Assembly: GCA_021735655.1 (NCBI GenBank)
Contig: JAIPGM010000001.1
Location: 192,001-256,000 of the forward strand
Origin: Candidatus Omnitrophota bacterium
Lineage (GTDB): Bacteria; Omnitrophota; Gorgyraeia; Duberdicusellales; 4484-171
DNA: 64,000 nucleotides
Direction of reading: 5' to 3'
Every line of letters starts with the position of its first letter. The stretch's first letter is position 1. The translations under genes were made by a program, and so were the position numbers. Shown here piece by piece: positions 1,764 through 47,718 of this stretch. The notes below the pieces were generated by a model, which saw only the letters and a list, made by a program, of their open reading frames with translations, was not told the DNA's origin and did not search any database.

Positions 1764-1791
1764 AACGATAAGTTAAGATTGAACAATAAAG

Positions 1792-2886: not shown

Positions 2887-2901
2887 CTTTTTAATTTTAA
2901 T

Positions 2902-3867: not shown

Positions 3868-3873
3868 TAGACT

Positions 3874-7076: not shown

Positions 7077-10000
7077 GGATAATAGAATTTAATAATGTTT
7101 GGGAGAAGTACCGGATTAAATTTGTAAGGGACAGGAAAGTTTCTTGGGAAGAAATTTGGGCTTTAAGCAATATAGACTTTACAGTTAATAAGGGTGAAGT
7201 TATAGGAATAATTGGTGAAAATGGTGCCGGAAAAACTACTTTATTAAAATTAATCGCTGGCATGTTTGCTCCGGATAGAGGAGATATATCTGTTCGAGGA
7301 AAGGTATCGGTATTGATGGAGCTAGGGGCTGGTTTTAATCCTGAGTTTACCGGGAGGGAAAATGTTATTCTTAATGCCCGTATCTACGGGTTAGATACAG
7401 ACATAGTTGAACAGCAAATGGAGAAAATCGTCGAATTTGCTGATATTGGTAAATTTATCGATGCCCCGGTTAAATATTATTCACAGGGCATGTATACCCG
7501 TTTAGCATTTGCTTTGGCTATATTTGTAGAGCCGGATATTCTTTTAATTGATGATATTCTATCGGTAGGCGATGCTGACGCACAAAAGAAATGTATTGAT
7601 AAAGTATTCAAGTTAAAGGAATCGGGAAAGACTATTATTTTAGTAAGTCATGACATGCATATGATAAGTAGGCTGTGCGATCGAGTTATCCTTTTGGATA
7701 AAGGTAAACTTATCGACAGAGGTAATCCCGCTGAGATTATCTATCATTACCTAGAGACTGTTGGGGATAAAAGTGGTATTGCAGTTTTAGAAAAGGATAA
7801 ATTAAGATTAGTATTTAATAATGGGAGAATTACTTTTAGCTACGCAGGAGTGCCCCTTACTAAAGAATTTGGTGGTTATGTGGCTTATTTTGTTTCTTCC
7901 CTTGGTAGTTGGCTTTCTTCTTTTGATTTATTCTGGAAGATAAGCCATTTTTCAGCTAATAAAATTGTTGCTGAGGGAGAATATAAAGGTAGAGGGCCTT
8001 CTCAGGTTTGGGTTTTGGAATTTTCTGAAAGCAGATTATGTTGGCAGGTGAAGATAAAAGACAAAGATGTAAGAGATCCGCATATAGATTTATTGCTTAA
8101 CCCTCAATATAAAAAATGGTTAAATTTAGACCAAGGCGGGGGTTTTCCTTCCTTTATTTCTAAATCTACTTGGCAGAATTTGGGTTTAGCTAATTTTCCC
8201 CAAGCTATGGTCGGTTTAACCGCAGACTTGGAAGTTAAGAGTTGTCCTTCTTTTGTTTTGACCGCAGAGGATAAGGATACTCAGATTAGACTTTTCAATA
8301 CAGGTTATGACCAGGAAGGACGCATTATTCAGTTGGATTTAAAGTTAGCCGGAGACAATCTATTTTTTCTTAAAATATTTCCTGAGAAAAATATATTTGA
8401 AGAGTATATTAAAAAAGAGAAAGATATATTTGAAGAGAGCATTAAAAAAGTAAACCAGCAACTAGCTTTAGAGAAAGAAGCGCAACAGGTCAGATTGCGG
8501 GATTTATCAACTTTTGCTTGGGGCAATTTTAGTCTTTTTGCTGATAAGGAGGAAAAGTCTTTAAAGCTATACTTTAAGAATAAAGAAGTCACCAAAAAAG
8601 AAGGATTCCATATATCTTTTTTGATCAATAATATCTGGTACGATACTACTTCTGCGGATTGGCAGATAACTAAAGAAAAGGAAGTTTTCATAATTAAACT
8701 ATTTTGGAAAGTGTTTGATTTTAAACAAACTTGGAAATTTTCAGTTAAGAATGGGGGGCTTCTTTGGAATTTAAATTCCATCGTAAAGAAAACCTTCAAT
8801 CCAGAGATTATGAAAATCGGTTTACTATTAATAAGTGAGTACAAAACTTTCTTTTGCGGTTATCAGCAGGAAGATTTTCCAGATAAATTCAGCTCTTGGC
8901 AGGATATGTCTCTCAAAGACCCGAAAGCAAGATGTTTTGGTTTAAGAAAACAAACATCGTTACCGGCGATTGCTTTAGATAACAATGAAAGTTTTGATTG
9001 TATTGTACAGAACAGCGATGAAGAAAATTCCTGTCGGGTACTACAGCTAAGCCTTCCCAGGCAAAGTTTTATTCAAAAAAATACATCTTTTGGTGTTCAA
9101 CTTAGCCTGCTTGAAGAGGAAAGTCCCATTGATCATTACCTTAAACAAGAAAGACAGGACCATTTACTTAGGCAACAAGAAGCAAAAAGATTGCTTAGCG
9201 CTAAAAGTACTATATCAAAAGATAATTTTCGTTTTTTTGTTGATAAGGAAGAAAAATCTTTAAGGATATACTTTAAGGACAAAGAGATTACTAAAGGGGC
9301 CGGTCTACATAGTTCATTATGCGTTTTCGGGAAGTGGTTTCATAGGGAGGAAACTAGGTGGCAGACAAAAAAGATTTCCGATGAAGAAGTAGTTTTAATT
9401 TTAAGTTATGACTCACTACCGCTTTTACAAATTTTTTCTCTTAGTTTCAAAAGAAAGGGTATTCTAAGAGTTAAAGTCGAAATGGAAATAAGCGAGCAGA
9501 TTCATTTGTCTGATCATCATCTGAAGCTTGAGCTTCAAGATGACTATAATAATTGGGATACTGGCTATGAGCAAGGCAATTTTTTTATTGATCGATATGT
9601 GGATGAGATCGGTCCGATTAGACTAAAAGATAATAGAATTTCGAATATACTATTGAGATCAAACAATGAAAGTAAAATTCCAAAAATGCTTTTGAAAATT
9701 ATTTCCCAAATTGATAGACGAATTATAAACCTTTATAAGCGAAGAAGTGAAGATGGAGAATGCGTTGGCCTTTGCTCTCCTTTGATTGTATCTAAAAAAG
9801 AAGAACTGGTTAAACCTGGAAAGTATACTTATTTCGAAGGAGAAATCATATTTGGAAAAGAAGCTAAATTAGAAAGAGAAGCTTCTAGGGTAGATATTGT
9901 CGAGCTTAAAAAAGATGATATAAGATTTGTTTTTGATCGTGGCAGAGTTAAAATTTTCTGGAAGGAAGAAGAGTTAACTTCGGAATTAGGAATTTATACC

Positions 10001-10540
10001 TCATTGCGTTCAAAAGGAATCTGGCAGGATTCTTACCAGGCAGCTTGGGAAATAGAGCATAAAGCTAAGGAAAAAATTGTGGCAACTGGAGGTTGGCCTT
10101 ACCTTCCCATTTCTCAAACATGGAAATTAGAGTTGCTCGGCAAGAATTCAATATCTTGGCAAGTTGACATGGAGATTTACGGTGAAGTTAATTTAGAGAT
10201 AGAACAGGCTAGTGTAATGATTTCTTCTAAATACAGGAATTGGGAAATTCCCAGTTTTAACAGCGGTAAATTTCTTGATGTCTATGTTAAGAATCACGAT
10301 ATTCTACCTTTTAGATTTTGGTCTGGGGATGCAAACAAGATAGCTGCTGTTTCAGAATGTTTTCCCTCGATAATTTTTAAAAGCGAAAGACAAGATAAAG
10401 AAATGCAGGCGGTTATAGAAAATACAGGTATTTTATATAGGGCAAGGTTGTTGCAGTATCAAAGTACAAGTAATAATGCAATTTTGCCAGGTAAATATCC
10501 ATACTTTAGGGGGATGATAGAAATTGAGACTAGGAAGTAA
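7073..10540 (+). CDS. ABC-2 exporter ATP-binding protein (Wzt/TagH-like) with ~900-aa C-terminal extension containing four repeats of a ~100-aa module
   Basis: The N-terminal 230 aa form an ABC ATPase (Walker A GENGAGKTT, LSVGD, Walker B ILLIDDILSVGD, H-loop SHD). The remaining sequence contains four related modules beginning near nt 7800, 8540, 9220 and 9900 (for example FADKEEKSLKLYFKNKEV...W...W and FVDKEEKSLRIYFKDKEI...). Confidence 0.8.
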   Translation: MRIIEFNNVWEKYRIKFVRDRKVSWEEIWALSNIDFTVNKGEVIGIIGENGAGKTTLLKLIAGMFAPDRGDISVRGKVSVLMELGAGFNPEFTGRENVILNARIYGLDTDIVEQQMEKIVEFADIGKFIDAPVKYYSQGMYTRLAFALAIFVEPDILLIDDILSVGDADAQKKCIDKVFKLKESGKTIILVSHDMHMISRLCDRVILLDKGKLIDRGNPAEIIYHYLETVGDKSGIAVLEKDKLRLVFNNGRITFSYAGVPLTKEFGGYVAYFVSSLGSWLSSFDLFWKISHFSANKIVAEGEYKGRGPSQVWVLEFSESRLCWQVKIKDKDVRDPHIDLLLNPQYKKWLNLDQGGGFPSFISKSTWQNLGLANFPQAMVGLTADLEVKSCPSFVLTAEDKDTQIRLFNTGYDQEGRIIQLDLKLAGDNLFFLKIFPEKNIFEEYIKKEKDIFEESIKKVNQQLALEKEAQQVRLRDLSTFAWGNFSLFADKEEKSLKLYFKNKEVTKKEGFHISFLINNIWYDTTSADWQITKEKEVFIIKLFWKVFDFKQTWKFSVKNGGLLWNLNSIVKKTFNPEIMKIGLLLISEYKTFFCGYQQEDFPDKFSSWQDMSLKDPKARCFGLRKQTSLPAIALDNNESFDCIVQNSDEENSCRVLQLSLPRQSFIQKNTSFGVQLSLLEEESPIDHYLKQERQDHLLRQQEAKRLLSAKSTISKDNFRFFVDKEEKSLRIYFKDKEITKGAGLHSSLCVFGKWFHREETRWQTKKISDEEVVLILSYDSLPLLQIFSLSFKRKGILRVKVEMEISEQIHLSDHHLKLELQDDYNNWDTGYEQGNFFIDRYVDEIGPIRLKDNRISNILLRSNNESKIPKMLLKIISQIDRRIINLYKRRSEDGECVGLCSPLIVSKKEELVKPGKYTYFEGEIIFGKEAKLEREASRVDIVELKKDDIRFVFDRGRVKIFWKEEELTSELGIYTSLRSKGIWQDSYQAAWEIEHKAKEKIVATGGWPYLPISQTWKLELLGKNSISWQVDMEIYGEVNLEIEQASVMISSKYRNWEIPSFNSGKFLDVYVKNHDILPFRFWSGDANKIAAVSECFPSIIFKSERQDKEMQAVIENTGILYRARLLQYQSTSNNAILPGKYPYFRGMIEIETRK
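7790..10250 (+). repeat. Four tandem in-frame copies of a ~100-120 aa protein module inside the Wzt C-terminal extension
   Basis: Read directly in the translation. Each unit has the shape hxhxF(x)...G-h-x-F/W...W...W-x-h-x-h with conserved Trp spacing. The same module recurs in the B12-rSAM genes at 10524 and 18468. Confidence 0.5.
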
Positions 10541-12890
10541 TTATCAAAAGTTTCGAAATCATCTAAGCGCGGGGGGTTTGATTTATGCTGTCTATAGAGG
10601 TATAAAATATTTTATTTATTTGCCGCAGAGGAGAAATTGTAAGCGTAAACAAAAACAAATAATGCTTATTAACGGCAAGCTAAGAATAGATTATTTGGAT
10701 AAAGGGATTGGCATGTCTTGGAATAATTCCCCAATTACCGAAAATGTACACTTTAATGTCGGGCTTAATACTTTAGGATTATGGACAGATTCTTCAAAGG
10801 CTCATTGGCAAATTATGGATCAAGGAGAAGATTATCTCAAGGTCAAGGTAATTTTCCAGGAGTTACCTTTGAGCCAGAATTGGCTAATAAAGTTAGAGGG
10901 CGACCACCAAATATACTGGAAGATAGATTTAGAAATAGAAGAGCATCTTCATATTGATGAATTCCGGATGGTTTGCGGAGTTAACCGTAAGTATAAAACT
11001 TGGATTAATAGCTTTCAGGAGAAAGTTTTTCCCCGGCTTAATCAATATTGGCAAGATTTATGTCTAGATAATGTTTTTACTTCTTTTGTGGGAGTAAGGT
11101 TTCCTACTGGAAACACTCTCTTGCCTTCATTGGTATTTGAATCTTGCGATGATAGCAGAGTTTTTTCCCCCCTTGTTCAAAATACCCCTTTAGATATTAA
11201 TACCCATATTATAGGATTTAGAAAGATTAATCACGAAGATGAAAGGGATTATCCGCCGGGTTGTTATCAGCTTTTTGCTGGCAGAATAAAATTATACGAA
11301 GACAATTATCTGTTAGATAAGAAAATAGAAGATGTGCGTCAAGATTACTTTAAGTCTACAATGAAACGAGTAAGTGCTATTTCCGAAGCCAAAGAATTAA
11401 AAGTTATGCTAGTAAATCTACCTTGGCAGAATAACGGGGTAGGGGGAGTAAGGGCTGGCTCTCGTTGGCCGCACATGAAAGATTTAAGCGAAGGAAATTA
11501 CTTACCATTTCCTTTTTTTCTTGCTTACGCCACCTCTCTTTTAGAAAAAAACGGTATCAAGGCTGACTTAGTTGATGCTATCGCAGAATGTTTATCCGAA
11601 GATAAGTTTATCGAGCGGCTTTTAGGAGCTAATTGTAATGTTTTAGTTGTTGAGACCTCTGTGCCTTCATTTTACCATGATCTGCAGCTATTAAGGAAGT
11701 TATCAAATTTTGGTTTTACAATAATTTTATGCGGTCCAAATTCTGAAATTTATAAATTTGAATTTTTAAAAGAAAATAGATTCATTAATTATGTTTTATT
11801 CGGAGAATATGAATTTACGCTTTTGGAATTGACGAAGATTATTTCTAAGGGCAAAAAAGATCTTACTTTTGTAAAAGGCCTTATTTGGAGAGATGAAAAA
11901 GGTAATATTATTAAGAATCATCCTCGGGAGCCTTTTGATATAAATTGTTTACCTTGGCCTCACAGGGATAAGCTTCCGATGGAAAAATATTGGGATTTAC
12001 CTGGTGATATTCCTCATCCTTCGGTTCAAATAGTTGCCTCGCGGGGTTGTCCTTTTGGTTGCAGTTTTTGCCTTTGGCCTCAGATTCTTTTTGGCGGAAA
12101 GACCTATAGAGTGAGGGACGTAACTGATTGCATTGATGAAATGGAGTACTTAGTAAGAGAAAAAGGCTTTAAATCAGTCTATTTCGATGATGATACTTTT
12201 AATGTCGGAAAAGCTAGGATGCTTGATTTTTGCAATGAGATTATAAAGAGAAAGCTAGATAATGTCCCCTGGGCAATTATGGCTAAAGCCGACCTTATGG
12301 ATGAGGAGATTTTAGATAAGATGAAGGAGGCTGGGTTACATGCGGTAAAGTATGGAGTAGAGAGTGCTTCGCAAGAGTTAGTGGATAGGTGTGGAAAATG
12401 TCTAGACCTTAAAAAAGCAGAGCAGATGATTAAATATAGCCAACATTTAGGCATAAAGGTTCATTTGACTTTTTCCTTTGGTCTTCCTGGAGAAACTAAG
12501 GAGACAATTAAAAAAACAGTTGATTATGCTTTAAAATTAGATCCACAGTCAGTTCAATTTTCAATTATTACACCTTTTCCAGGCACAACTCTTTTTGAAG
12601 AGCTAGATAAAAAGGAAAAAATTCTTACTAAGAATTGGTCTTTGTATGATGGTCATTATAGTTGTGTTTTCCAGCCGGATAACCTTTCTTTGGGAGATTT
12701 AGAAGAATCAAAACAACATGCTTACAGGTTGTGGCTAGATTATCAAAGGAAAAAAAGAGGATTGCTGGGTGATCTAAAAAGGTTCTATAATTATGCACAA
12801 AAAGATGGTTTAGGCAATGCAGTTAAGAAGACTAAAGATTACTTGAATTATTCTATTTTTCATAGAAAGAAGTTTATCGGTAAGATATGA
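10524..12890 (+). CDS. B12-binding radical SAM (class B) enzyme with N-terminal copy of the Wzt repeat module
   Basis: TTG start at 10524 with AGGGGGA 9 nt upstream. The repeat module spans nt ~10660-10950. The B12-binding-like region is KVMLVNLPWQ...LAYATSLLEKNGIKADLVD. The rSAM CxxxCxxC is ASRGCPFGCSFC at ~12046-12075. Confidence 0.75.
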   Translation: MRLGSNYQKFRNHLSAGGLIYAVYRGIKYFIYLPQRRNCKRKQKQIMLINGKLRIDYLDKGIGMSWNNSPITENVHFNVGLNTLGLWTDSSKAHWQIMDQGEDYLKVKVIFQELPLSQNWLIKLEGDHQIYWKIDLEIEEHLHIDEFRMVCGVNRKYKTWINSFQEKVFPRLNQYWQDLCLDNVFTSFVGVRFPTGNTLLPSLVFESCDDSRVFSPLVQNTPLDINTHIIGFRKINHEDERDYPPGCYQLFAGRIKLYEDNYLLDKKIEDVRQDYFKSTMKRVSAISEAKELKVMLVNLPWQNNGVGGVRAGSRWPHMKDLSEGNYLPFPFFLAYATSLLEKNGIKADLVDAIAECLSEDKFIERLLGANCNVLVVETSVPSFYHDLQLLRKLSNFGFTIILCGPNSEIYKFEFLKENRFINYVLFGEYEFTLLELTKIISKGKKDLTFVKGLIWRDEKGNIIKNHPREPFDINCLPWPHRDKLPMEKYWDLPGDIPHPSVQIVASRGCPFGCSFCLWPQILFGGKTYRVRDVTDCIDEMEYLVREKGFKSVYFDDDTFNVGKARMLDFCNEIIKRKLDNVPWAIMAKADLMDEEILDKMKEAGLHAVKYGVESASQELVDRCGKCLDLKKAEQMIKYSQHLGIKVHLTFSFGLPGETKETIKKTVDYALKLDPQSVQFSIITPFPGTTLFEELDKKEKILTKNWSLYDGHYSCVFQPDNLSLGDLEESKQHAYRLWLDYQRKKRGLLGDLKRFYNYAQKDGLGNAVKKTKDYLNYSIFHRKKFIGKI

Positions 12891-15800
12891 AGAATTATCT
12901 AGTCACCTGGGATAAAATATGTAAGGGTATAACTAAGCAAAAGAAGATATTTTGTGGCCCACACACTGTCCAAATAGATTTAACCGACAAATGCAATAGT
13001 AGCTGCGTTGCTTGTTGGATTCACTCACCTTTAGTTGAGGAAAAAAAATCATTTCCAGAAGGCAAAAAACAACTTTCTTTCGAATTAGTTAAAAGTTTGA
13101 TTAATGATTTGTCTGATTTAGGAACTCAGGAGGTAATTTTATCCGGATCAGGGGAGCCATTTTTATATCCAGAAATAAAAGAGGTTATAAAAAATATAAA
13201 GTCAAAAAATATGTATCTAAATATAATTACCAATGCTTCTCTTATCGATGAGGAAATGGCAGAGCTGTTAGTAAAATGCAAAGTCGATTTAATTACTGCC
13301 AGCATATGGGCCGGTGATGCTGAAACTTACAGCTTAACTCATCCAGGAAAAAGCGAAGCTGATTTCGAAAAAATAAAGAGTAACTTAAAGAAATTGGCTT
13401 TTTATAAGAAGCGGTATGGTTCATTGGAGCCGCATTTAAAATTATATAATGTAATTTGCAGTAAAAATTATAGAAATATTGAGGAAATGGTTGATTTTGC
13501 TAAATCAATGGATGCCGATTCTTTAGAGTTTCAGGTTGTTGATATAATTTCTGGGAAAACAGATCATTTGGCCCTGAAAGATGCCTATAAGAGCGAGATA
13601 GTAAATCAATTGGACAATATAAGAAAGCGAAAAGATTTAATATCTTTTAATACGCCTAAAGAAATGCCGATAGATAGTTTTATTGATGAGGAATTTTTTG
13701 ATTTTGGAAAGATTTGGAAAAATTACAAAAACGGCTTTTGCGTTTCTCAGTGTAGCAGTTCTTTGGTTTGCAAAAAAGATCACGAGATAAAAGATAAGAG
13801 AATTATTGTTTCAGAGTCGACATCAACCAGAGGGACTCGTCCGGTTGCATTTTGGTATAAATTTGAAAATAATATATGTAAAACTTGCGAGGAAAATATT
13901 GAGTGCGTTGACGATGAAAATGCAGTGAGCATAAAATTGTTGAATATGTTGGGTATTGGTTCATTTTTGAGGAGATTATTGCGCTCTGATTTAGAGAGAG
14001 GGATATATGAAAAGCAAATAAATAGCATCCCATGTTATATAGGGTGGTATTATTCTCGTATTTTAGCTAATGGTGATGTTATCCCTTGTTGCAAGGCAGG
14101 TAAGTTATCTTTAGGTAATATTAAGAAAAGAACTTTTTCTAAAATTTGGCATTCCTATCGATATAAAAAGTTTCGGCTTAACGCTAAGAATTTAACTAAG
14201 CATCATAAGTATTTTTCTAACATCAATTGCATCAAGAGTTGCGATAATTGGGGAGTAAATTTAGAAATCGACGGGAGATTGAAGGAATTTGAAAATAAAG
14301 AGAAAAAAAAGGAGCCTTACCTTTTAACTATCAAGAATAGCATTATAAAGGGTAGGGTTGAGGATACGCTTGCAAAAATTACTCGTAATATTAAACCGAA
14401 TAATTTAAAAAAGAGATATTCAGAAATTTTAGGTGTATTTGATGGTGAACATGGTTATAAAGGTCCATTCCACGTTCAGATAGACTTGACTAATGATTGC
14501 AATAACACTTGCATTGCTTGTTGGTGCAATTCACCTCTTTTGAAAGAGAAACGATTATCGGCTGATAAAAAAAATCAATATTTACCTTTAGGAATGGTAA
14601 AGGAATTATTGGATGAGATTACTAATATGGGTGCTACTGAGGTCTATTATTCAGGAAGTGGTGAACCATTTATGCATCCAGCGATTATGGAGATTCTCGA
14701 TTATTCAAAAAAGAAAGGTTTAATCTGTCACGTAAATACTAATTTTACTCTTCTTAATCAAGAAAAGATAGATTGCTTAATCGATATGGAGGTTGACCAT
14801 CTTACGGTGAGTGTTTGGGCGGCTACGGCCGAAACTTATGCAAAAACTCATCCTAATAAAACCGAGGCTGACTTTCAACGGATAAAAGAGAATTTACTAT
14901 ATCTGAACTTACGAAAGAAAAGTAAGCCCTGTATAAAAATTTATAACGTTATTTTTAACATGAATTACCTTGAAGTTGAGAAGATGCTTGATTTTGCCGT
15001 TGAGACTAAATCTGAATCTTTAGAATTTACCCTTGTAGATACTATGCCTGGGGCTACTGATATGCTTGCTTTAAATCAAGGACAGTTGGATGAGCTTAAT
15101 GATTTATGCAGGAAAATAAAATTAAAATTAGATAAAAATTACATAATTAGGAGTAAAAAGGTATTGCTTTTTCAGTTTGAGCAGTTTTTGAGAAGGATTT
15201 CTGTTTCTCAAGATGTCCAGGAGGCAAAATACGATAGAGGTGTTATTGATAGTATGCCTTGTTATATTGGTTGGCTTTTTGCACGAATAATTCCTAACGG
15301 GGAAGTTCATTCTTGTCTTAAGGCGCATAGAATTCCGACCGGTTCTTTGTATAAAGATAGATTTTTCGAAATTTGGAATAGTGCTAAACAGGCACATTTT
15401 CGTAAAAAGACTTTAGTTTGCAGAAAAGATGATCCTTTCTTTAGGTTGATTGGCAACGATCCCAATACAAAGGAGGCCGGTTGTTACAAGAGTTGCGATG
15501 ATATCGGGAGGAACACTTGGATGCATAACAAGATGAATATGTTGACGCCACTGGGAAGGCTGACACTTAAGTACGTAGCTAAAGCCATGAAGCCTCTAAG
15601 GAGGCTTAGGTCCAAAAACGATAATTTTAAGAATTACCACAGTGACCCTTTAATTGCCGGGGTCATCCATGGCCGGAAGGCTTTTTTGGGACCCGAACAA
15701 GTAGTAATTGATCCGACCAATAAGTGTAATTTGCAATGCATTTCTTGTTGGATGTATTCGCCATTATTGAAAAAAAATAAACCAGCTTTGGATTTATTGA

Positions 15801-16741
15801 AACAAGAATTATCTAAAGAGGTACTTATTAAATTAATCGATGATTTAGCTGATTTAGGAACAAAGCGTATTAGGTTCACTGGTGGCGGAGAGCCTTTTAT
15901 GCATAAAGATTTGATGACAGTAATAGAGCATGCCCGAAAAAAGAATATTTTAGTTGCGGTAACTACGAACTTTGGTTTGGTCTCTAGACAGGATATTCTT
16001 AGATTGTGTGATTTGGGATTGGAGGAGTTATGCATAAGCATTTGGGGTTCTTCATCGAGAGTCTACAATTTGGTTCATCCTGGTACCGGTGAGGATTATT
16101 TTAAGAAATTAAAAGAAAATCTTTCTTATTTGAAAGGGCTAAATAAGTATAAACCGCGGACTACCTTTGCTAATGTAATCATGAATAATAATTTCACTGA
16201 TTTTGAAGCAATGTATGATTTTGCTTTAGATCATGGAGCTGATGCAGCCTATTTTACCTTGGTTGATATTATTTCCGGTCAAACCGATAAGTTCTTGTTG
16301 AATAAAGATGAACGAAGCGAATTGCTAAAGAGAGCTCTTATGGTTCAGCAACGAAATAAAGATAACAAGCTGCAGCTTGAATTTTTTGAGAATTTTCTAA
16401 AAAGAGTATCTAGTTTCCAAGGAGACTTTGAAAAAGGAGAATATGATAAATCGAGCATTGATCAATTGCCTTGTTATGCCGGCTGGATTTTTTCAAGAGT
16501 TTTGGCAGACGGAAGCGTTGCGCCCTGCTGCCGGGGGGTTAAAAAAATAATCGGCAACATCAAGACTAAATCTTTTAAAGATATTTGGTTTTCGCCCGAA
16601 TACAATGAGTTTAGAGTTAAAGCAAAGTATTTATCGAAAAGCAACGCTTACTTTAAGGATATAGGCTGTATAAAAGAATGTGATAATTTGATGCATAATC
16701 AGGAGTTTCATAAAAGAATAAATCTAAAAGAAGGAGGTTGA
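12887..16741 (+). CDS. Triple tandem radical SAM/SPASM(twitch)-type fusion protein (three complete rSAM domains in one 1284-aa polypeptide)
   Basis: Three CxxxCxxC motifs are present: DKCNSSCVAC (~12992), NDCNNTCIAC (~14509) and NKCNLQCISC (~15730). Each is followed about 330 aa later by a Cys-rich auxiliary-cluster region of the form PCYIGW...NGDVIPCC...GNI...IW...C..C. The ATGA overlap with the upstream gene indicates coupling. Confidence 0.8.
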   Translation: MKNYLVTWDKICKGITKQKKIFCGPHTVQIDLTDKCNSSCVACWIHSPLVEEKKSFPEGKKQLSFELVKSLINDLSDLGTQEVILSGSGEPFLYPEIKEVIKNIKSKNMYLNIITNASLIDEEMAELLVKCKVDLITASIWAGDAETYSLTHPGKSEADFEKIKSNLKKLAFYKKRYGSLEPHLKLYNVICSKNYRNIEEMVDFAKSMDADSLEFQVVDIISGKTDHLALKDAYKSEIVNQLDNIRKRKDLISFNTPKEMPIDSFIDEEFFDFGKIWKNYKNGFCVSQCSSSLVCKKDHEIKDKRIIVSESTSTRGTRPVAFWYKFENNICKTCEENIECVDDENAVSIKLLNMLGIGSFLRRLLRSDLERGIYEKQINSIPCYIGWYYSRILANGDVIPCCKAGKLSLGNIKKRTFSKIWHSYRYKKFRLNAKNLTKHHKYFSNINCIKSCDNWGVNLEIDGRLKEFENKEKKKEPYLLTIKNSIIKGRVEDTLAKITRNIKPNNLKKRYSEILGVFDGEHGYKGPFHVQIDLTNDCNNTCIACWCNSPLLKEKRLSADKKNQYLPLGMVKELLDEITNMGATEVYYSGSGEPFMHPAIMEILDYSKKKGLICHVNTNFTLLNQEKIDCLIDMEVDHLTVSVWAATAETYAKTHPNKTEADFQRIKENLLYLNLRKKSKPCIKIYNVIFNMNYLEVEKMLDFAVETKSESLEFTLVDTMPGATDMLALNQGQLDELNDLCRKIKLKLDKNYIIRSKKVLLFQFEQFLRRISVSQDVQEAKYDRGVIDSMPCYIGWLFARIIPNGEVHSCLKAHRIPTGSLYKDRFFEIWNSAKQAHFRKKTLVCRKDDPFFRLIGNDPNTKEAGCYKSCDDIGRNTWMHNKMNMLTPLGRLTLKYVAKAMKPLRRLRSKNDNFKNYHSDPLIAGVIHGRKAFLGPEQVVIDPTNKCNLQCISCWMYSPLLKKNKPALDLLKQELSKEVLIKLIDDLADLGTKRIRFTGGGEPFMHKDLMTVIEHARKKNILVAVTTNFGLVSRQDILRLCDLGLEELCISIWGSSSRVYNLVHPGTGEDYFKKLKENLSYLKGLNKYKPRTTFANVIMNNNFTDFEAMYDFALDHGADAAYFTLVDIISGQTDKFLLNKDERSELLKRALMVQQRNKDNKLQLEFFENFLKRVSSFQGDFEKGEYDKSSIDQLPCYAGWIFSRVLADGSVAPCCRGVKKIIGNIKTKSFKDIWFSPEYNEFRVKAKYLSKSNAYFKDIGCIKECDNLMHNQEFHKRINLKEGG

Positions 16742-16747
16742 AGTTAA

Positions 16748-17566
16748 TTGAATATGGCGGGTAAAGTGGGTGCTATCGATTTTCAATTATTTTTAAGAAA
16801 AATCAGCCTTGAGCGTTTTTTTCAAAGTTTTTATTATTTTAAATGGTTGGAATACCCTTTAGTCTACAATAACCTTGAACTAAAAGCAGGTGAACAGTAT
16901 CTCGATATCGGTAGTGGAAAGTCCATTTTTCCTCTATTTGTCGTAGCGAAAAATAACTGTAACGTGCACGTATTTGATGATCAGTCCATTATAAAAGACA
17001 GTATTACTTATTATCAGAGCAATATTAGAAAGATGGGGTTATGCAATATTTCTGGAAAAAATTTCTTGATTCACGAAGCTACAGAGAAAGGACAGCTCGA
17101 TTTTCCTGATAATTACTTTGATAGAGTTTCTTGTATTTCGGTATTAGAGCATATTAAGGGCAATGGTGATAGTGTAATGATGCAGGAAATATCAAGAATT
17201 TTAAAAAAAGGCGGGAGGGCTGTGATAACTTTTCCGTTTAATGGCAAGGATTATATAGAAGAAGATAACCCAGAAGGGGTAGGATATTTCCAGCGGAAGT
17301 ATAGTGTAGCGGCGATTAAAGAGCGGATAATTGATCCAGCCAATTTAAAGGTTAAGAAGGTTATATATTTTGGAGAACGTTATATAAGTTTTGGGGAACA
17401 ATACTTGCAGAATAAATTTAGAAAAATAAATTGGCTCATACCTTTATTCGCGCCTATTTTATGGAGGGTGTGCCATTATTATGAAGGTGAATATCGCAAT
17501 TTTTATGAGCGAGCAATAGATAAAAAAGGTACTGGCGTAGCGTGTATTGTTTTTGATAAGATTTGA
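16748..17566 (+). CDS. Class I SAM-dependent methyltransferase
   Basis: Motif I is YLDIGSGKSIFPL. The post-I acidic residue is VFDDQ and the motif II-like block is RVSCISVLEHI. RBS GAAGGAGG lies at 16732-16739. Confidence 0.7.
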   Translation: MNMAGKVGAIDFQLFLRKISLERFFQSFYYFKWLEYPLVYNNLELKAGEQYLDIGSGKSIFPLFVVAKNNCNVHVFDDQSIIKDSITYYQSNIRKMGLCNISGKNFLIHEATEKGQLDFPDNYFDRVSCISVLEHIKGNGDSVMMQEISRILKKGGRAVITFPFNGKDYIEEDNPEGVGYFQRKYSVAAIKERIIDPANLKVKKVIYFGERYISFGEQYLQNKFRKINWLIPLFAPILWRVCHYYEGEYRNFYERAIDKKGTGVACIVFDKI

Positions 17567-17591
17567 ATAAGCAAAATTGTGAAAATTTAAG

Positions 17592-18464
17592 ATGCTGACT
17601 TTTCCTAAATATCTTTCAATCCAAACTACTTCTCTATGCAATGCTTCTTGTGTATTTTGTCCCTATAAAGATATAAAAGATGTAAGGTTCAAGACAATAA
17701 TGGATAGAGGCCTTTATGAAAAAGTTATTAATGAATGCAGTAACCATAAAGATATTGAATGCATTATAGTTTACATGAATAACGAGCCCTTAACTGATCC
17801 TTGCATAGTTGAGAGAATAAATTATGCCAAAGATAAAGTTCCTTGGGCTAGTGTGCATATCTTGACCAATGGAGCCTTACTTAGCGATGACCTGGCTGAT
17901 AAACTTATTGATTCTCGTCTAGACTGGATCGGGGTAAGCTTTCATGGGATCAGAAAAGAAACTATAGAGCGGGCAATGGGCATTCCTTATGAGATCAGCT
18001 TGAAGAGAATAACCAATTTTATCGAAAAAGCAAAAGCGAAGAAAAATATAAAGAACTATTTTATGCTAACTTTTTTGCGCCATGTATATTTGACTCCTCA
18101 AGAGCGGGAAGAGGCTATTAGTTTTTGGAGAAAACTGGGGATAGAAAGAATAAGCTATTTTGACGGGCCCATATCTCGGGCCAGCAATGTAACTAATTTA
18201 CCAAAAGTCTACCATCAAGGCAAGATCAGTGGATGTAATTCTATCTGGGCTGATGAGATGCTTCATGTGGTAGAGGATGGTAAGGTTATTTTGTGCTGCA
18301 TGGATTGGCGAAGAGAAGTAATTTTAGGCGACCTAAACAAACAAAGCATCCATGAAATATGGAATGGCAAAAGAAGAAAGATTTGGGATATGATTCGTGG
18401 AACAGGAGAGGTTCCTGAAGGATTTTTGTGCCGCAGGTGCGAAGAGGCTAAGCAAGAGATTTAA
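17592..18464 (+). CDS. Radical SAM enzyme with C-terminal SPASM/twitch-like Cys cluster (same family as the triple fusion)
   Basis: The motif is SLCNASCVFC (~17634-17663). The C-terminus SGCNSIWADEM...DGKVILCC...LGDLNKQSIHEIW...CRRCEEA matches the auxiliary-cluster pattern of the 12887 and 39797 proteins. Confidence 0.75.
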   Translation: MLTFPKYLSIQTTSLCNASCVFCPYKDIKDVRFKTIMDRGLYEKVINECSNHKDIECIIVYMNNEPLTDPCIVERINYAKDKVPWASVHILTNGALLSDDLADKLIDSRLDWIGVSFHGIRKETIERAMGIPYEISLKRITNFIEKAKAKKNIKNYFMLTFLRHVYLTPQEREEAISFWRKLGIERISYFDGPISRASNVTNLPKVYHQGKISGCNSIWADEMLHVVEDGKVILCCMDWRREVILGDLNKQSIHEIWNGKRRKIWDMIRGTGEVPEGFLCRRCEEAKQEI

Positions 18465-18467
18465 AGG

Positions 18468-20636
18468 ATGCTCATGAAAAATGAAAATTGCGAATTAATT
18501 TTTGTAATGACTCCGCCTTGGCAGACAAAGATGCCGCCTTTAGGCTTGGCCTATTTAGCCAGTTTTTTGAAGTCAAACAATATTAACGTAGATGTCATAG
18601 ATTTGAATGTGGATCTTTTTAATAATGCTCAAGAATGCCATAAATATTTTTGGGATATAGAAACAATAAGTAATTTTGGTTCGCTTCGGATTGCCCAAGA
18701 TTTTATTAAGGCATTCAATAAAGAACTTGAAAATTTTGTTGATCGAATCTGTAGTCATCCTGCAAAGTTGGTCGGTTTTTCTACTACGGTAGCTAGTATA
18801 AATATCGCCACCTACCTTACTCATCGGATAAAATCAAAAGATCCTTCGAAAATAATTATTTTAGGCGGGCCAGGATGTTTTTTGGATACTTGCAATATAG
18901 ATCCTGAAAGGGTGGTAGATATTTTTGTCATTGGCGACGGAGAGCTGCCTTTATTGGATATAGTTAAAAGATTTAAAGATAAACAGTCTTTGTCTGATTT
19001 GTTGGAGGTTCCTGGGACAATAATTTGTCTAGATAAGAAATATCATGACTTTTCACCGGCGAATCCTGTTAAGCAGATAAACGATATTCCTTTTCCTACT
19101 TTTTCGGAGTTCGAGCTGGATGAATACCATAAAGAACATGTTTACAAACCAATTCCAATTATTACCAGCAGAGGCTGTATAAATAAATGCAGTTTTTGCG
19201 TAGACCATAAGCTCAGTAATCCTTTTAGATTTCGAAATCCGCACAAAATATTTGAAGAGATAAAATACCATGTAGAAAATAATTGTAAAAAAGAGTTTGA
19301 GTATAACGATCTACTATGTAATGGAAATTTAAAGCAATTGGAGCAGCTTTGCGACCTGATCATTGAAAGCGGCCTGTCTATAAAATGGACAAGCTATGCG
19401 GCCATAAGGAAAGGTATGAGTTTAGAGTTATTTCAGAAGATGCAGAAGGCGGGATGCAGATTTTTATGTTATGGTATGGAGTCAGCTTCAGATTTAGTTT
19501 TAGATAAGATGAATAAAAGATATAATTCTCATACGGCAGAGGATGTTATTAGAAAAACCCATTCCTCAGGTATCGAGACAGGAATCAACATTATAGTTGG
19601 CCACCCCGGTGAGTCGAATAAAGAATTTAACCAAACTTATAGATTTATCAAAAGAAACAAAGACTACATTGATCAAATCACAAACCTGTCTACTTGTTTT
19701 TTAATACCGACTTCGGATTTAGCTGAGAATATGAGCAATTTCGGTATTTATTTTTATTCTCCTTTGAAAAGGATGCCAAAATTCTTATTTCGAAATAAAG
19801 AGCTTGAGCCTAATTATGAAAATTTCTGCGCCTATCCTCATAATACTCCTGCGATTAGAGCAAAACGAGCCAGAAAAATTATAACTCTTGCTTCAAAGAT
19901 AGCTATACCGATTACTATTTTGAACTATCAAAAGCAGCACGATATGGGTATGGGGGATTTTCTAGTCCAAACTCAAGAAGCGGAAAAAGTTTTTCGTTGT
20001 AAGAAGTTAAAGATAGACTTTAGTCAAAAAGGAAGCGGTAGGTTATATTATGACAATAAGGCCTTAACTAAAGACGTAGGCCTAAATGCTTCCTTTCATG
20101 CCAATGGGCGATGGTTTGATTCTTCTTCGGCAAAGTGTCGGGTAGCCAGATCCAACAGAGGCTTGGAAATAAGAATGAGTTGGCCGGAGATTTCTTTGTT
20201 TCAATGCTGGACGATAAAAACAGAAGGTGATTCTTCTGTCGAATGGCGGGTAAAAACAGAGTTTAAAAGGTCTTTGGAGCTATCTCAATATAAGATCGGC
20301 ATTATCTTGTCACAGGAATACGATAGTTGCCAAGTTAATGGTGAAGAACACCGATTCTCCGATAATTTTACCGAGAACTGGGAGGAAGCATTGTTTTTGA
20401 AGCTTGATTCGATAAGCATCGGCTCTAAGGGATTTTTACCGATGATGACCCTGAAGGAAGAATCCAAGGGTGGTGTGTTCGTGCAGGTCCATAATACCCC
20501 GCTTCACTTGCATACTCGAATGATTAATTTTTGCCGTTTTGGCGAGAACCTTAAAGATGACCACAGCACTGAATCTTTATTGATCAAAAAAGGTGATGTT
20601 TGGAAAAATAAGCTAAAAATAAAATTAAAGGTTTAA
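18468..20636 (+). CDS. B12-binding radical SAM (class B) enzyme with C-terminal copy of the Wzt repeat module
   Basis: The N-terminal B12-binding-like region is LIFVMTPPWQTKMPPLGLAYLASFLKSNNINVDVIDLN. The rSAM motif is ITSRGCINKCSFC (~19172-19200). The C-terminal segment ~19990-20290 (KKLKIDFSQKGSGRLYY...W...W) matches the Wzt module. Confidence 0.75.
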   Translation: MLMKNENCELIFVMTPPWQTKMPPLGLAYLASFLKSNNINVDVIDLNVDLFNNAQECHKYFWDIETISNFGSLRIAQDFIKAFNKELENFVDRICSHPAKLVGFSTTVASINIATYLTHRIKSKDPSKIIILGGPGCFLDTCNIDPERVVDIFVIGDGELPLLDIVKRFKDKQSLSDLLEVPGTIICLDKKYHDFSPANPVKQINDIPFPTFSEFELDEYHKEHVYKPIPIITSRGCINKCSFCVDHKLSNPFRFRNPHKIFEEIKYHVENNCKKEFEYNDLLCNGNLKQLEQLCDLIIESGLSIKWTSYAAIRKGMSLELFQKMQKAGCRFLCYGMESASDLVLDKMNKRYNSHTAEDVIRKTHSSGIETGINIIVGHPGESNKEFNQTYRFIKRNKDYIDQITNLSTCFLIPTSDLAENMSNFGIYFYSPLKRMPKFLFRNKELEPNYENFCAYPHNTPAIRAKRARKIITLASKIAIPITILNYQKQHDMGMGDFLVQTQEAEKVFRCKKLKIDFSQKGSGRLYYDNKALTKDVGLNASFHANGRWFDSSSAKCRVARSNRGLEIRMSWPEISLFQCWTIKTEGDSSVEWRVKTEFKRSLELSQYKIGIILSQEYDSCQVNGEEHRFSDNFTENWEEALFLKLDSISIGSKGFLPMMTLKEESKGGVFVQVHNTPLHLHTRMINFCRFGENLKDDHSTESLLIKKGDVWKNKLKIKLKV

Positions 20637-20646
20637 AAATTTACAT

Positions 20647-23600
20647 ATGAATCTAACAGATAAAATTTTATTAGTGGGTCTTGCTCCTTGGGGAGTAGAT
20701 ACGCCACCCCTAGCCTTAGCTTGTTTAAGTACCTCTTTGAGGAATGCAAATATTAGCACTGAAGTATTTGATATGAATATTGAGCTTTACAATGCCGTTA
20801 ATGAGCAAAGTAAATATTTGTGGAGTATGAATTATTCTCATTGGTGGCGAGAGCCAGAAAGATATTCTGATATTAGAAAGGAATTAGATGTTTACATAGA
20901 ACCTTTAATAAAGAAAATTTTAAGTTTTAAGCATAAGATAGTTGGCTTTTCACTTTCTACTAATTGCTCTGACCTTTTGTTGGAGGAGATAGTAAAAAGA
21001 ATAAAAACTAGCGATCCCGATAAGGTAATAATTCTAGGTGGTGTTTCAATTTCAATAAATGAGCAGAGAAATGATTTAATTAGGAAGTTAAGGACGCAGA
21101 TAGATTACTGTGTGATTGGAGAAGGAGAAGAGGTACTTGTCGAATTGGTAAAGAAAATAGCTAGCAATAAGCTAGAAGATATAGGTCGATTGCCAGGCAT
21201 AATTAAGAAGGGTGAGTTTGAAGGAGTTAAACAGAGGGCAGAGATCAAAGATTTTAATTCGCTGCCATTTCCTACATTTGAAGAATTCAATTTAAAAAAA
21301 TATAAAGCACCCGTGAGCTTACCTATGGAATTTTCTCGTGGCTGCGTAGGTAGTTGTCCTTTCTGCGATTTTAAAAGCGTTTCTTCTGCCTTTAAGTCAA
21401 AAGCACCTTATTATATTATAAGCCAGATAAAATTCTATAAAGAAAAATACAATATTATTCATATGAGCCTATCTGACCCAGCAGTAAATGGAGATATTAG
21501 GGTTCTTGAGCAAATATGTGATTTATTAATCGAAGCTAACCTTTCTGTAAATATAAATTCTCTGGCAATTCCCCGCAAGGAAATGACCTTAGAACTATTA
21601 GAGAGAATGAAGAAAGCAGGTTTTTATCGTTTGGAGTATGGTCTAGAGAGCGGTTCGAATAAGATTCTCAAAGCAATGAGGAAAATATTTACTGTCGAAA
21701 TTGCCGAGAAAGTTATCCGAGATACTTATCAAGCAGGGATAAAAACATATCTCTATTTAATTGTGGGTTATCCACAGGAGACAGAGGATGATCTCAATCA
21801 GACCAAAGATTTTTTGAATAGAAACCGTCAGTATATTTCCATGATAAAGTCTATCAACCCTCTTTATGTAATGGCCGGTTCAGAGATATTTTGCAATCCC
21901 GATAAATATCAAGTCACATTACCGGCTAAAGATAGTGACAAGAGATGGTTTATTGGTGATAAGAATACATATTCTTTGCGAAAAGCCCGGATATTTGAAC
22001 TTAAAAAAGTAGTTGCTAGTTTAAATATTCCCTTTACCGAAGAGGCGGAATCTTTAGAGTTTACTGGAAACTCTTTAAATAAACAACAAGGAATCGTTGT
22101 AGGTGGAGGCAATCCATACGATAAAGATGAGTCAACTACAGAAAATAAAATTATGTCTAGAGGATATGCAGAACAAAAAACAGATAAATATAGAGATAGT
22201 TTTTTATTAATTAATTTGCCCCCTTGGGGTCAAGAAAATCCTCATATCGGAGTAGGCTATGTGTGTAGCTATCTTCGTCATAAAGGCTTTAAGCCATCGG
22301 TCTTAGACTTGAATAAGAAATTTTATTTGAGTCAGCCAAATTTTCAAATGCTCTGGCATGTAGAAAATAAAAACTTTTGGTCAAATCAAGATTCTTTTCC
22401 TTTGATTTTAAAATTATTTAAGAAGGAAATAGATAAGGCAATAAATGATATTTTGTCTTCAGGTTGCAGCCTATTAGGTTTCTCGGTAGTTGACCCTAAA
22501 GAAAAAATAACTATAGAGTTCATTAGGAGAATAAAACGTAGGGATAAAAGTAAAAAGATAATTTTAGGTGGTCCGGCAACTTCTACTTATGAGCAGAGAA
22601 AGATATTTTTGGATAATGTTGAGGAAGAGATAGATACTTTTGTGATCGGCGAAGGCGAGCAAACTTTGTTTAAGGTAGTAGACCGAATTTTAAAGAAAAA
22701 AGAGCTTAAAGGTATCGAGGGTTGTTGCAGCCGGGATAATGGTAAGTGGGTTTGTCGAGAAAGCGGTGAGATTGTTTCTTTAGATAAGATTCCTTTCCCG
22801 ACCTATGAGGAATTTGATTTGAGTCTATACGGTAAATCTTTCCTTGTTGAATGGTCAAGAGGCTGTAGGAGTAAATGCGCTTTTTGCAAAAATTATCGGC
22901 TTTTTTCTTCTTATCGGTCAAAGTCAGCTGAATCGGTTATGAAGGAATTGAGATATCATAAGCAAAAGTATAATGTAGATGAATTCACTGTAGTCGATAA
23001 TATTTTGAATGGTGATCTAAATACCTTGAATGATATTTGCGACAGGATAATAAAGGAAAATCTTCAAATTAGATGGACTGGGCAAATTGCCCCCCGCAAA
23101 GATATGAATTTTGAATATTTCCAAAAAATGAAGCAGGCCGGATGTTTTAAACTTCAAATTGGCCTTGAGTCTGGTTCGAACAAGGTGTTAAAGTTAATGC
23201 ATAAGAGCTTTACGGCAGAGATTTCTGAAAAAAATATAATTTTTGCTAAGAAAGCAGGCATTGAGACAGAAATTTTTACAATGATTGGTTTTCCCGGGGA
23301 GGCTGAGAAAGATTTTCAAGAAACTTACGATTTTATAAAAAGAAATGCAAAATATCTGGATACCATAAAATCGATAAACACCTTACATCTAATAGCCGGA
23401 ACTGAAATCTATGAGCAGAGAGAGCGTTTTAAAATAAAGCCTTTACCTCAAGAAAACTGGCATTATTTATGGGAAACTTATGAGGGAAATACATACAAGG
23501 TACGGGAAGAAAGAGCTAAGCGTATTCTAGGGTTAGCTTGCGATCTTAAGATTAAAGTTATGGAGACTAATATTATAGAGGGAAAAGAGCAAAAAGTTTT

Positions 23601-26785: not shown

Positions 26786-26786
26786 T

Positions 26787-34442: not shown

Positions 34443-34479
34443 TTATAGTGATAATATTATAGTAGACAGGAGATTAGCT

Positions 34480-34653: not shown

Positions 34654-34668
34654 TTTTCTAACTTTTGT

Positions 34669-36277: not shown

Positions 36278-36345
36278 ATTTTCTTAACTGCATAGATAGG
36301 ATTTTGTTTATAGCATTATCCTTTTTTTACGTCTTGCCTTTTAAA

Positions 36346-43407: not shown

Positions 43408-43518
43408 TAGGCCTGTGTTTTGTTGATGATTTAGCTGGGGTTATGATAAAATATGTAGACTAATGAGAATTACTGTATTAAACGAGACTCATTTACAGCA
43501 AAAGCTTAACCGAAAACA

Positions 43519-45081: not shown

Positions 45082-45091
45082 GCAGTAGATT

Positions 45092-46288: not shown

Positions 46289-46307
46289 CTAAAAAAAGGA
46301 GTCACAA

Positions 46308-46544: not shown

Positions 46545-46571
46545 TTATTTTATAAAAAGGAGATTCGGAAT

Positions 46572-47717: not shown

Positions 47718-47718
47718 T

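Follow-up and report, generated by a model that had tools for sequence, protein, structure and literature searches.

Why would the ATPase of a putative Wzm/Wzt-type exporter share a domain with radical enzymes encoded beside it? The question is raised by a 64,000-nucleotide stretch of DNA from a Candidatus Omnitrophota bacterium (assembly GCA_021735655.1, contig JAIPGM010000001.1, positions 192,001 to 256,000; hereafter the window, in which position 1 is the first letter). Here a Wzt-like ATP-binding cassette (ABC) ATPase with four C-terminal repeats is encoded upstream of a series of radical S-adenosylmethionine (SAM) enzymes. An initial annotation of this sequence had proposed that the repeat is also fused to two B12-radical SAM enzymes, at the N-terminus of rs10524 and at the C-terminus of rs18468. 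The window does encode six homologous copies of one domain, here called the module.

A module shared by the exporter and two radical SAM enzymes

The N-terminus of rs10524 aligned with the C-terminus of rs18468 over 194 residues at 24% identity (73.6 bits, BLASTP), and with repeats 4, 2, 1 and 3 of the Wzt at 68.9, 56.2, 43.5 and 40.4 bits, respectively. A hidden Markov model (HMM) built from the four Wzt repeats only, to avoid circularity, matched residues 55-239 of rs10524 (79.1 bits, E 3.6e-23) and residues 520-687 of rs18468 (74.4 bits, E 9.9e-22). The top score among 2000 residue shuffles of both radical SAM modules was 9.3 bits, which rules out a similarity driven by composition. The same model gave zero score on the cluster radical SAM proteins encoded from 12887 and 20647, and a six-frame scan of the whole window returned exactly six copies, with a next best score of 4 bits:

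7778..8437, plus strand: Wzt module 1, residues ~236-455 (HMM envelope); 43.5 bits to the rs10524 module (BLASTP)
8504..9139, plus strand: Wzt module 2, residues ~478-689 (HMM); 56.2 bits to the rs10524 module, 57.4 to the rs18468 module
9203..9877, plus strand: Wzt module 3, residues ~711-935 (HMM); 40.4 and 46.6 bits to the two radical SAM modules
9896..10531, plus strand: Wzt module 4, residues ~942-1153 (HMM); 68.9 and 48.1 bits to the two radical SAM modules
10647..11330, plus strand: rs10524 module, residues ~42-269
19977..20621, plus strand: rs18468 module, residues ~504-718; 74.4 bits with the Wzt-repeat HMM, 73.6 bits to the rs10524 module

BLASTP, the HMM and the shuffles thus bear out the proposal that one domain family sits on the Wzt, in four copies, and on both B12-radical SAM enzymes. 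The extent of the unit has to be redrawn: the annotation had given it ~95 residues, and the alignment gives ~210, about double. Because the unit is this long, the rs18468 copy runs past nucleotide 20290, where the feature had been ended, to nucleotide ~20621.

What kind of domain is this? Pfam holds no family at residues 236-1155 of the Wzt, 1-290 of rs10524 or 480-722 of rs18468, and with isolated modules it returned no family at E <= 10, bar one chance Ig-like match (E 0.13). The carbohydrate-binding domain of canonical Wzt proteins, Wzt_C (PF14524, gathering score 30.4 bits), had no match on the Wzt, rs10524 or rs18468 at E <= 0.01, and none on any of the six isolated modules even at E <= 10. 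The same model gave 52-91 bits on proteins from other loci (P0342 and proteins of L077 and L080). Alignment of 36 modules against six bona fide Wzt_C sequences by hhalign gave a probability of 0.27%, with an E-value of 0.22 over 28 columns. Searches of PDB sequences with both module profiles, including Wzt carbohydrate-binding entries such as 6O14 (PMC9445017), produced only chance matches (E ~0.2). The missing PF14524 match and the hhalign result rule out a diverged Wzt_C. The module is therefore without kinship to the known recognition domain, and the name 'Wzt recognition module', under which it was first annotated, was an assumption.

The two domains are alike in position and in general build, as the Wzt_C of Escherichia coli O9a and A. 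aeolicus also lies C-terminal to the Wzt nucleotide-binding domain and is also an all-beta sandwich (PMC9445017). However, Wzt_C is a jelly-roll of ~140 residues that forms a strand-swapped dimer and is present in single copy, whereas the module, a supersandwich of ~210 residues with no detectable homology to it, departs from that pattern and occurs on Wzt proteins in tandem arrays of one to seven.

Structure prediction places the module among the galactose-mutarotase-like beta-supersandwiches: its predicted fold matches solved members over most of the domain, with Foldseek in agreement, at 4-13% sequence identity to any of them. With few exceptions, the best structural neighbours come from carbohydrate-active proteins. 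Among them are aldose 1-epimerases, OpgG/OpgD and supersandwich accessory domains, the latter from GH2, GH36, GH38 and GH97 enzymes, from the A-antigen galactosaminidase and from fucanases, glycan phosphorylases and lyases. True mutarotases have ~340 residues and the module ~210, without a Pfam or PDB sequence match, and we found no literature description of mutarotase-like domains on carriers such as an ABC ATPase or Fe-S radical enzymes. The columns kept in at least 90% of the 36 modules are T32, W47, Q78, W80, F129 and P161 (rs10524-module numbering). As they include no His or Glu, the module is suggested to be non-catalytic, and its predicted fold and its context point to glycan binding.

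The module family is rare. An exhaustive HMMER search of 1.84 billion cluster representatives found 631 proteins at E <= 1e-3, 298 of them at E <= 1e-30. A word-indexed homologue search with the six-module alignment recovered one protein only, because the family is too divergent. Among the best 150 of the 631 matches, 87 have an ABC ATPase followed by two to seven modules. The other layouts among these 150 include a B12-radical SAM enzyme with one or two modules either behind or ahead of it, two or three modules ahead of a radical SAM/SPASM enzyme, and a single chain of B12-radical SAM, module, SPASM and module. They also include eight PMT_2 (GT-C) glycosyltransferases with two to four C-terminal modules, one sulfatase with two modules, and one polypeptide of 1856 residues (P0015) that joins an ABC ATPase, five modules and a radical SAM/SPASM enzyme. 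Chains of ~1400 residues with the order B12-radical SAM, module, SPASM radical SAM, module recur in several loci (P0055, 1403 residues; L006/L059, 5745-9977).

The module-bearing B12-radical SAM enzymes

Both enzymes have the cysteine motif (CxxxCxxC) of radical SAM proteins, as CPFGCSFC in rs10524 and CINKCSFC in rs18468, and the three cysteines of rs10524 (C509, C513 and C516) are invariant in 16 orthologues. From the N-terminus, rs10524 consists of conserved helices (residues 1-40), the module, a helical linker, the B12-binding domain and the radical SAM core. The B12-binding domain PF02310 scored 42.3 bits on rs18468 (cut-off 32.1) and had no match on rs10524 itself in the Pfam scan. Many full-length rs10524 orthologues have a precomputed PF02310, alignments with HpnJ and BchE span residues 296-737, and residues 293-440 are modelled as alternating beta/alpha, Rossmann-like structure.

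AlphaFold modelled full-length rs10524 with a predicted local distance difference test score (pLDDT) of 80.7 and a predicted TM-score (pTM) of 0.57, at which the orientation of the module to the active site cannot be read from the model. The model runs from two helices (residues 3-39) through the module (47-258) and a long helix (261-284) to a low-confidence hinge (281-288), followed by the B12 and radical SAM parts. This predicted beads-on-a-string layout is as expected for an appended targeting domain.

The closest NCBIfam family of rs10524 is HpnJ (TIGR03471; 235.9 bits with profile positions 5-432 of 472 aligned, where the equivalog cut-off is 577.6). NCBIfam relatives of the B12-radical SAM enzymes of the cluster also include HpnR and TIGR04072, and all these scores lie far under the curated cut-offs. 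HpnJ is a B12-radical SAM enzyme of hopanoid cyclitol-ether biosynthesis and acts on a lipid-linked amino sugar, so a sugar substrate is plausible for rs10524. Unlike rs10524, HpnJ is without an N-terminal module and unlinked to Wzm/Wzt, and there are no hopanoid genes here.

The two enzymes differ in how constantly they carry the module. All 120 of the best rs10524 homologues, mostly from Omnitrophota metagenome-assembled genomes, retain it at the N-terminus (46-65% identity). Among 120 rs18468 homologues, ~35 have one or two modules and 73 have none. Most of the module-bearing ones are also fused to a SPASM enzyme, which is a separate gene (17592-18464) in the window.

Proteins 47-69% identical to the catalytic part of rs10524 (residues ~290-788), without the module, occur in metagenome-assembled genomes that are not labelled Omnitrophota. 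The labels are Aminicenantes, Woesearchaeota, Nanoarchaeia, Methanosarcinales, Patescibacteria, Auribacterota and Magnetomicrobium, and the loci are L021, L042, L044, L047, L054, L067, L073, L074, L077, L080, L085 and L086. These module-less genes usually adjoin genes for SPASM radical SAM enzymes and GT1 glycosyltransferases. Judged by these sequences, the catalytic cassette is widely transferred across bacteria and DPANN archaea.

The NCBI model of a protein identical to rs10524 starts at Met47 and has 742 residues. The 45 residues upstream of that start (NYQKF..HL..GGL.YA..RGIKYFIYL; nucleotides 10524-10658) are kept in full-length orthologues, with G18 and R25 invariant. The TTG start of rs10524, which overlaps the Wzt stop by 17 nucleotides, is probably real because the upstream residues are conserved and are modelled as two helices. 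Residues 1-45 could form an amphipathic membrane anchor. A homologue of 1236 residues, P0223, has a precomputed Pfam annotation with PF14528 and PF14890, which we take to be LAGLIDADG and intein-splicing domains; if so, this module-B12-radical SAM orthologue may carry an intein.

Accessory domains in related loci and the surrounding gene set

Does the sharing of a domain between exporter and enzyme extend to other genomes? We examined 85 related loci by six-frame scans with the module HMM, the Wzt_C HMM and seeds for the other cluster proteins. The recurrent order is a flavoprotein, Wzm, Wzt with one to five modules, a module-B12-radical SAM enzyme, three SPASM radical SAM enzymes (fused or separate), B12-radical SAM enzymes, GT1 and PMT_2, the last two glycosyltransferase genes being recurrent in related loci. 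Where a Wzt is visible, which defines all the following counts, at least one radical SAM enzyme with a module accompanied a Wzt with modules in 25 loci (25 of the 31 module-Wzt loci). A Wzt with Wzt_C was accompanied by a radical SAM enzyme with Wzt_C in one locus and by plain radical SAM enzymes only in two. One Wzt without an accessory domain had only plain radical SAM enzymes beside it. No locus with a visible Wzt mixed the accessory domain types of Wzt and radical SAM enzyme.

In the locus with Wzt_C on both partners (L004), the enzyme is P0342, a B12-radical SAM protein of 779 residues that is 37% identical to the catalytic part of rs18468 and has two tandem canonical Wzt_C domains (52.1 bits against the 30.4 cut-off). 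Wzm and a Wzt with Wzt_C are encoded immediately downstream of it, and the enzyme and Wzt copies align at 68 bits. A Woesearchaeota locus (L080) encodes, at 16743-18548 on the minus strand, a protein of 602 residues that begins with a nucleotidyltransferase domain (Polbeta/NTP_transf_2) and ends with a canonical Wzt_C (90.6 bits); this gene adjoins a Wzt with Wzt_C and a Wzm. As the module loci and these Wzt_C loci show the same pairing, the tailoring enzyme bears the accessory domain type of the neighbouring exporter in two structurally unrelated domain families. The module and Wzt_C appear to play interchangeable roles, since Wzt_C is itself fused to a homologous B12-radical SAM enzyme and to a nucleotidyltransferase in related clusters.

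In the window, nucleotides 4986-26062 form a single, tightly packed gene set on the plus strand, in which neighbouring genes from 6294 to 26062 overlap or abut, with a largest gap of <=45 nucleotides:

4986..6293, plus strand: amine-oxidase-like FAD/NAD-binding flavoprotein (Pfam Amino_oxidase, 76.5 bits, and NAD_binding_8); first gene, conserved
6294..7076, plus strand: Wzm-type ABC-2 permease (Pfam ABC2_membrane, 46.3 bits; NCBIfam galactan Wzm/RfbD, 54 bits, under cut-off)
7073..10540, plus strand: Wzt/TagH-type ABC ATPase (residues 1-235) with four tandem modules, 1155 residues (Pfam ABC_tran, 88.4 bits)
10524..12890, plus strand: rs10524, 788 residues, N-terminal module and B12-radical SAM enzyme (Pfam Radical_SAM, 75.4 bits)
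12887..16741, plus strand: triple radical SAM/SPASM fusion without a module, 1284 residues (Pfam Radical_SAM three times, SPASM three times); conserved neighbour
16748..17566, plus strand: SAM-dependent methyltransferase (Pfam Methyltransf_11 and Methyltransf_31)
17592..18464, plus strand: radical SAM/SPASM enzyme, 290 residues (Pfam)
18468..20636, plus strand: rs18468, 722 residues, B12-binding domain, radical SAM domain and C-terminal module (Pfam B12-binding, 42.3 bits; Radical_SAM, 65.3 bits)
20647..23805, plus strand: double B12-radical SAM fusion, 1052 residues, with a C-terminal hydrophobic helix and no module (Pfam)
23802..26062, plus strand: two GT1/GT4-family glycosyltransferases (Pfam Glycos_transf_1, 100 bits, and precomputed Pfam); syntenic in related loci

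The flavoprotein, which precedes Wzm in many related loci too, matches UDP-galactopyranose mutase weakly (64.7 bits, cut-off 304). In the Wzt, ABC_tran covers residues 31-161, module 1 begins at residue ~236, and Wzm is encoded directly upstream; its NCBIfam matches are TagH (205 bits) and galactan Wzt (156 bits), both under the curated cut-offs. The adjacent permease and ATPase genes are arranged as would be expected of a Wzm/Wzt glycan exporter, with every family score short of its cut-off. The 12887-type enzyme is syntenic as three SPASM radical SAM enzymes and is module-bearing in other genomes (orders M-M-M-S and R-M-S-M). In most orthologous clusters the 17592 enzyme is the N-terminal part of the rs18468-type protein, in fusions of 1000-1037 residues with the order SPASM, B12-radical SAM, module. 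The 20647 protein scores 280.1 bits with TIGR03975 (cut-off 281.85) and has its hydrophobic segment at residues 1015-1033. Further glycosyltransferases in the window are a GT1/GT4 enzyme (30272-31510), a GT2 enzyme (41060-41911) and two PMT_2 GT-C enzymes (41908-45081).

The surroundings are rich in radical SAM enzymes: 12 such domains lie within ~30 kb (10524-40843), of which rs10524 has one, 12887 three, 17592 one, 18468 one, 20647 two and 33288 one, the rest being a HemW/HemN-like protein (27598, minus strand), a B12-radical SAM enzyme (37161) and a SPASM enzyme (39797, minus strand) with one each. A second ABC-2 exporter pair (26108-27590; an ATPase of 225 residues without an accessory domain and a permease of 267 residues) comes right after the GT1 genes. 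A subcluster resembling those for ribosomally synthesized and post-translationally modified peptides (RiPPs) occupies 32995-37149. It consists of a PqqD-family chaperone (32995-33288, 43.5 bits), a radical SAM/SPASM enzyme closest to the ACGX-system family (33288-34442; 169 bits, cut-off 400), an open reading frame of 57 residues ending in ...AGTTAGCGCCGCCCCW as a candidate Cys-rich precursor (34480-34653), a weak HprK-like P-loop protein and a signal-peptidase-I-like protein (36304-37149, 67.6 bits). The region 41908-49302 encodes the two PMT_2 (GT-C) enzymes, without modules, an MBOAT O-acyltransferase, an acyl-CoA dehydrogenase and an AMP-dependent ligase, a gene content which suggests that the product may be acylated or lipid-linked. 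At the edge of this glycan island, LarE/LarB/LarC-like genes (50745-53534) for a PP-loop ATPase, an AIR-carboxylase-like protein and a Ni_insertion protein (478 bits) suggest nickel-pincer cofactor synthesis. The upstream border of the cluster is formed by an unrelated Opp/Dpp-type peptide ABC importer (1-4842; the end of a solute-binding protein gene, two permeases and two ATPases).

Possible substrates of the proposed tailoring enzymes

What, then, would the shared module recognize? The best explanation as a whole, which we hold with modest confidence, is that this is a cluster, conserved in Omnitrophota, for a lipid-linked glycan that is heavily tailored by radical SAM enzymes and exported by Wzm/Wzt, with the module acting in the manner of a carbohydrate-binding module (CBM). 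GT1 and GT2 enzymes would assemble the glycan. In this lineage the jelly-roll carbohydrate-binding domain of Wzt would have been replaced by one to seven tandem modules of ~210 residues, and paralogous modules would be joined via flexible linkers to cytoplasmic tailoring enzymes encoded beside the transporter, namely an HpnJ-like B12-radical SAM enzyme with an N-terminal copy, a PhpK/C-methyltransferase-like one with a C-terminal copy and, elsewhere, SPASM radical SAM enzymes. Each non-catalytic, CBM-like module may hold the catalytic part on the nascent undecaprenyl-linked chain. Judged by the closest named families, the chemistry on the sugar could be C-methylation or an HpnJ-like, carbocycle-forming rearrangement. 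The module array on Wzt would then capture the finished or modified chain for export through Wzm, by analogy with the canonical pathway, where the carbohydrate-binding domain of Wzt recognizes a terminal cap (PMC9445017). A glycan-linked role is favoured because the module directly follows the Wzt nucleotide-binding domain, at the site of the canonical carbohydrate-binding domain. A glycan ligand is also favoured by the fusion partners of the module elsewhere, which are glycan enzymes (PMT_2, sulfatase) and SPASM radical SAM enzymes. Further support is drawn from the retention of the module in all 120 rs10524 homologues, from the synteny and the co-variation of domain type between Wzt and enzyme, from HpnJ as the closest named family of rs10524 and from the appended position of the module in the rs10524 model.

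Several points weigh against this explanation. The modules fall into positional orthologue classes, with 23-52% identity within a class between genomes and 18-25% between classes, and the rs10524-type module has 19.0% identity to Wzt modules encoded in its own locus, the same value as to Wzt modules from other loci. The comparison of module identities gave no sign of within-genome homogenisation or of co-evolution toward a common ligand. In six loci a Wzt with modules is accompanied by plain radical SAM enzymes only, the loci were retrieved by alignment to full-length rs10524 orthologues and are thus biased toward module-radical SAM genes, and the co-variation argument stands on three Wzt_C-type loci only. 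Priming glycosyltransferase and nucleotide-sugar genes were unnoticed among the annotated open reading frames of the window, no search having been aimed at them. Proteins without an established role on sugars have the fold as well, namely the non-enzymatic YidC P1 domain, NDH subunit PnsB2 and a PBCV-1 capsid protein. The organism is uncultured.

The equal identities and the positional classes have two further consequences. They mean that the fusions are old, and they rule out that the radical SAM modules are recent copies of the neighbouring Wzt modules. The annotation's claim that exporter and enzymes share the same substrate-recognition domain therefore holds for the family and would be an assumption for ligand specificity, as modules of one genome are only ~19% identical. 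Different module copies could read different states of the chain.

Could the module instead be a docking or oligomerisation domain, through which homotypic or heterotypic module-module contacts assemble the radical SAM enzymes on Wzt as a membrane-associated metabolon, with no direct glycan contact? We consider this unlikely, but much would fit it: the tandem arrays of one to seven copies with helical linkers, the conservation of positional classes between genomes, as for fixed partners in a complex, the strand-swapped dimers formed by canonical Wzt carbohydrate-binding domains (PMC9445017), and the protein contacts that the fold serves in YidC P1, PnsB2 and the virus capsid protein. Co-variation of domain type between Wzt and enzyme is also expected if like docks with like. 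Against docking, nearly all of the best structural neighbours are carbohydrate-active, and there are loci with module-radical SAM genes but no Wzt within 10 kb (for example L046, L050, L053 and L065). Both the nucleotide-binding domain of Wzt and the Fe-S radical SAM enzymes lie in the cytoplasm, whereas the modules of the sulfatase and GT-C fusions would face the opposite side of the membrane. The sulfatase fusion has an N-terminal signal or anchor, and most PMT_2 fusions have nine predicted transmembrane segments with an excess of Lys and Arg on the N-terminal-side loops, which would put the C-terminal modules outside; these calls come from a simple hydropathy script and are crude, a caveat that also counts against the glycan. 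Some fusion partners are thus probably extracytoplasmic. If modules on both sides of the membrane are confirmed, a membrane-crossing ligand such as a glycan fits better than docking to Wzt.

A membrane lipid or glycolipid as substrate (hopanoid-like, ladderane-like or membrane-spanning), flipped by the ABC-2 transporter and bound by the module through its head group, seems to us somewhat less probable again than docking. Among the closest NCBIfam families of the B12-radical SAM enzymes are HpnJ, HpnR and the 'lipid biosynthesis B12-binding/radical SAM protein' TIGR04072, but these scores are far under the curated cut-offs. The window encodes an MBOAT protein, an acyl-CoA ligase, an acyl-CoA dehydrogenase and a GDSL lipase, and radical SAM lipid-modifying enzymes have been reported in Omnitrophota genomes (10.1101/2023.10.20.563219). 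TIGR01188 (drrA) scores 142 bits, and DrrA-family ABC-2 exporters move lipids; however, ATPase and permease match teichoic-acid and galactan exporters best, and glycosyltransferases of the GT1, GT2, GT4 and GT-C types abound in the cluster and in related ones. A lipid substrate and the lipid-linked glycan overlap if the product is a lipid-linked oligosaccharide.

That the radical SAM enzymes mature a ribosomal peptide exported by the ABC-2 pair, with the module as a peptide-recognition domain, is very improbable, even though B12-radical SAM C-methyltransferases and SPASM/twitch radical SAM enzymes are typical RiPP maturases, the 20647 protein scores 280 bits with TIGR03975 and the RiPP-like subcluster (PqqD chaperone, radical SAM/SPASM enzyme, Cys-rich open reading frame) lies 13 kb downstream: no PqqD or RiPP recognition element (RRE) domain was found in the core cluster (6294-26062), whose genes overlap or lie <=45 nucleotides apart and so leave no room for a precursor gene. 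We know of no peptide-recognition role of the supersandwich fold in RiPP systems, and in dozens of loci the conserved neighbours are Wzm/Wzt, GT1 and GT-C. In the analogous fusion the accessory domain is Wzt_C, of which the members characterised so far bind O-antigen caps (PMC9445017). The annotation had placed the enzymes on the exported polymer, or its terminus, and not on a peptide. The missing room for a precursor and the synteny speak against a peptide; the polymer depends on glycan binding suggested by fold and context, and a glycolipid would be equally compatible.

How does a module that tethers tailoring enzymes to a lipid-linked glycan compare with known systems? The logic of an accessory binding domain on Wzt is known already. 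The novelty lies in the domain family, in its arrangement in tandem, in its presence on radical SAM enzymes as well as on the exporter, and in the parallel fusion of Wzt_C to a radical SAM enzyme. A system of like logic is the RRE (PqqD-like), also a small, non-catalytic recognition domain that is fused to or encoded beside radical SAM enzymes and common to several enzymes of a pathway. The RRE is a winged helix that binds a leader peptide, whereas the module is a predicted beta-supersandwich in a glycan-export context, so that the likeness is one of analogy and not of homology. A limited literature search, covering few subscription journals, found no account of Wzt/radical SAM fusions or of PF14524 architectures other than Wzt, no mutarotase-like domain on Wzt and no carbohydrate-binding module fused to a radical SAM enzyme. 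The expectation that a glycan-targeting module on a radical SAM enzyme would be novel is in keeping with that search, the glycan binding itself being suggested by fold and context.

To our knowledge, known sugar-acting radical SAM enzymes use small molecules or nucleotide sugars as substrates. The literature we searched has no account of a surface glycan of bacteria being tailored by radical chemistry at the level of the polymer, by way of an appended binding module. If the explanation is right, the module would represent a new domain family standing in for the carbohydrate-binding domain of Wzt exporters. There would also be a genomic rule, that the accessory domain of the enzyme is of the type of the neighbouring Wzt, by which glycan substrates could be assigned to hundreds of orphan B12 and SPASM radical SAM enzymes now automatically named BchE-like, YgiQ-like or peptide maturases. 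The hypothesis is directly testable by expressing single modules and enzymes.

More tentatively, the data may be read to mean that a lipid-linked glycan of the cell surface is made by Omnitrophota and, with canonical Wzt_C, by some DPANN archaea and further uncultured groups. In the cytoplasm, as many as a dozen radical SAM domains would modify it, every enzyme being tethered to the polymer by the new glycan-binding module, with the array on the exporter proof-reading the modified chain. On this reading the module would be a 'glycan RRE', the carbohydrate counterpart of the RiPP leader-peptide recognition element, and radical C-methylation, ring contraction or C-C cross-linking on a polysaccharide would be implied. 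Omnitrophota are an uncultured phylum reported to be host-dependent or episymbiotic (10.64898/2026.06.07.730766), and the finding would offer an entry point to the chemistry of their cell envelope.

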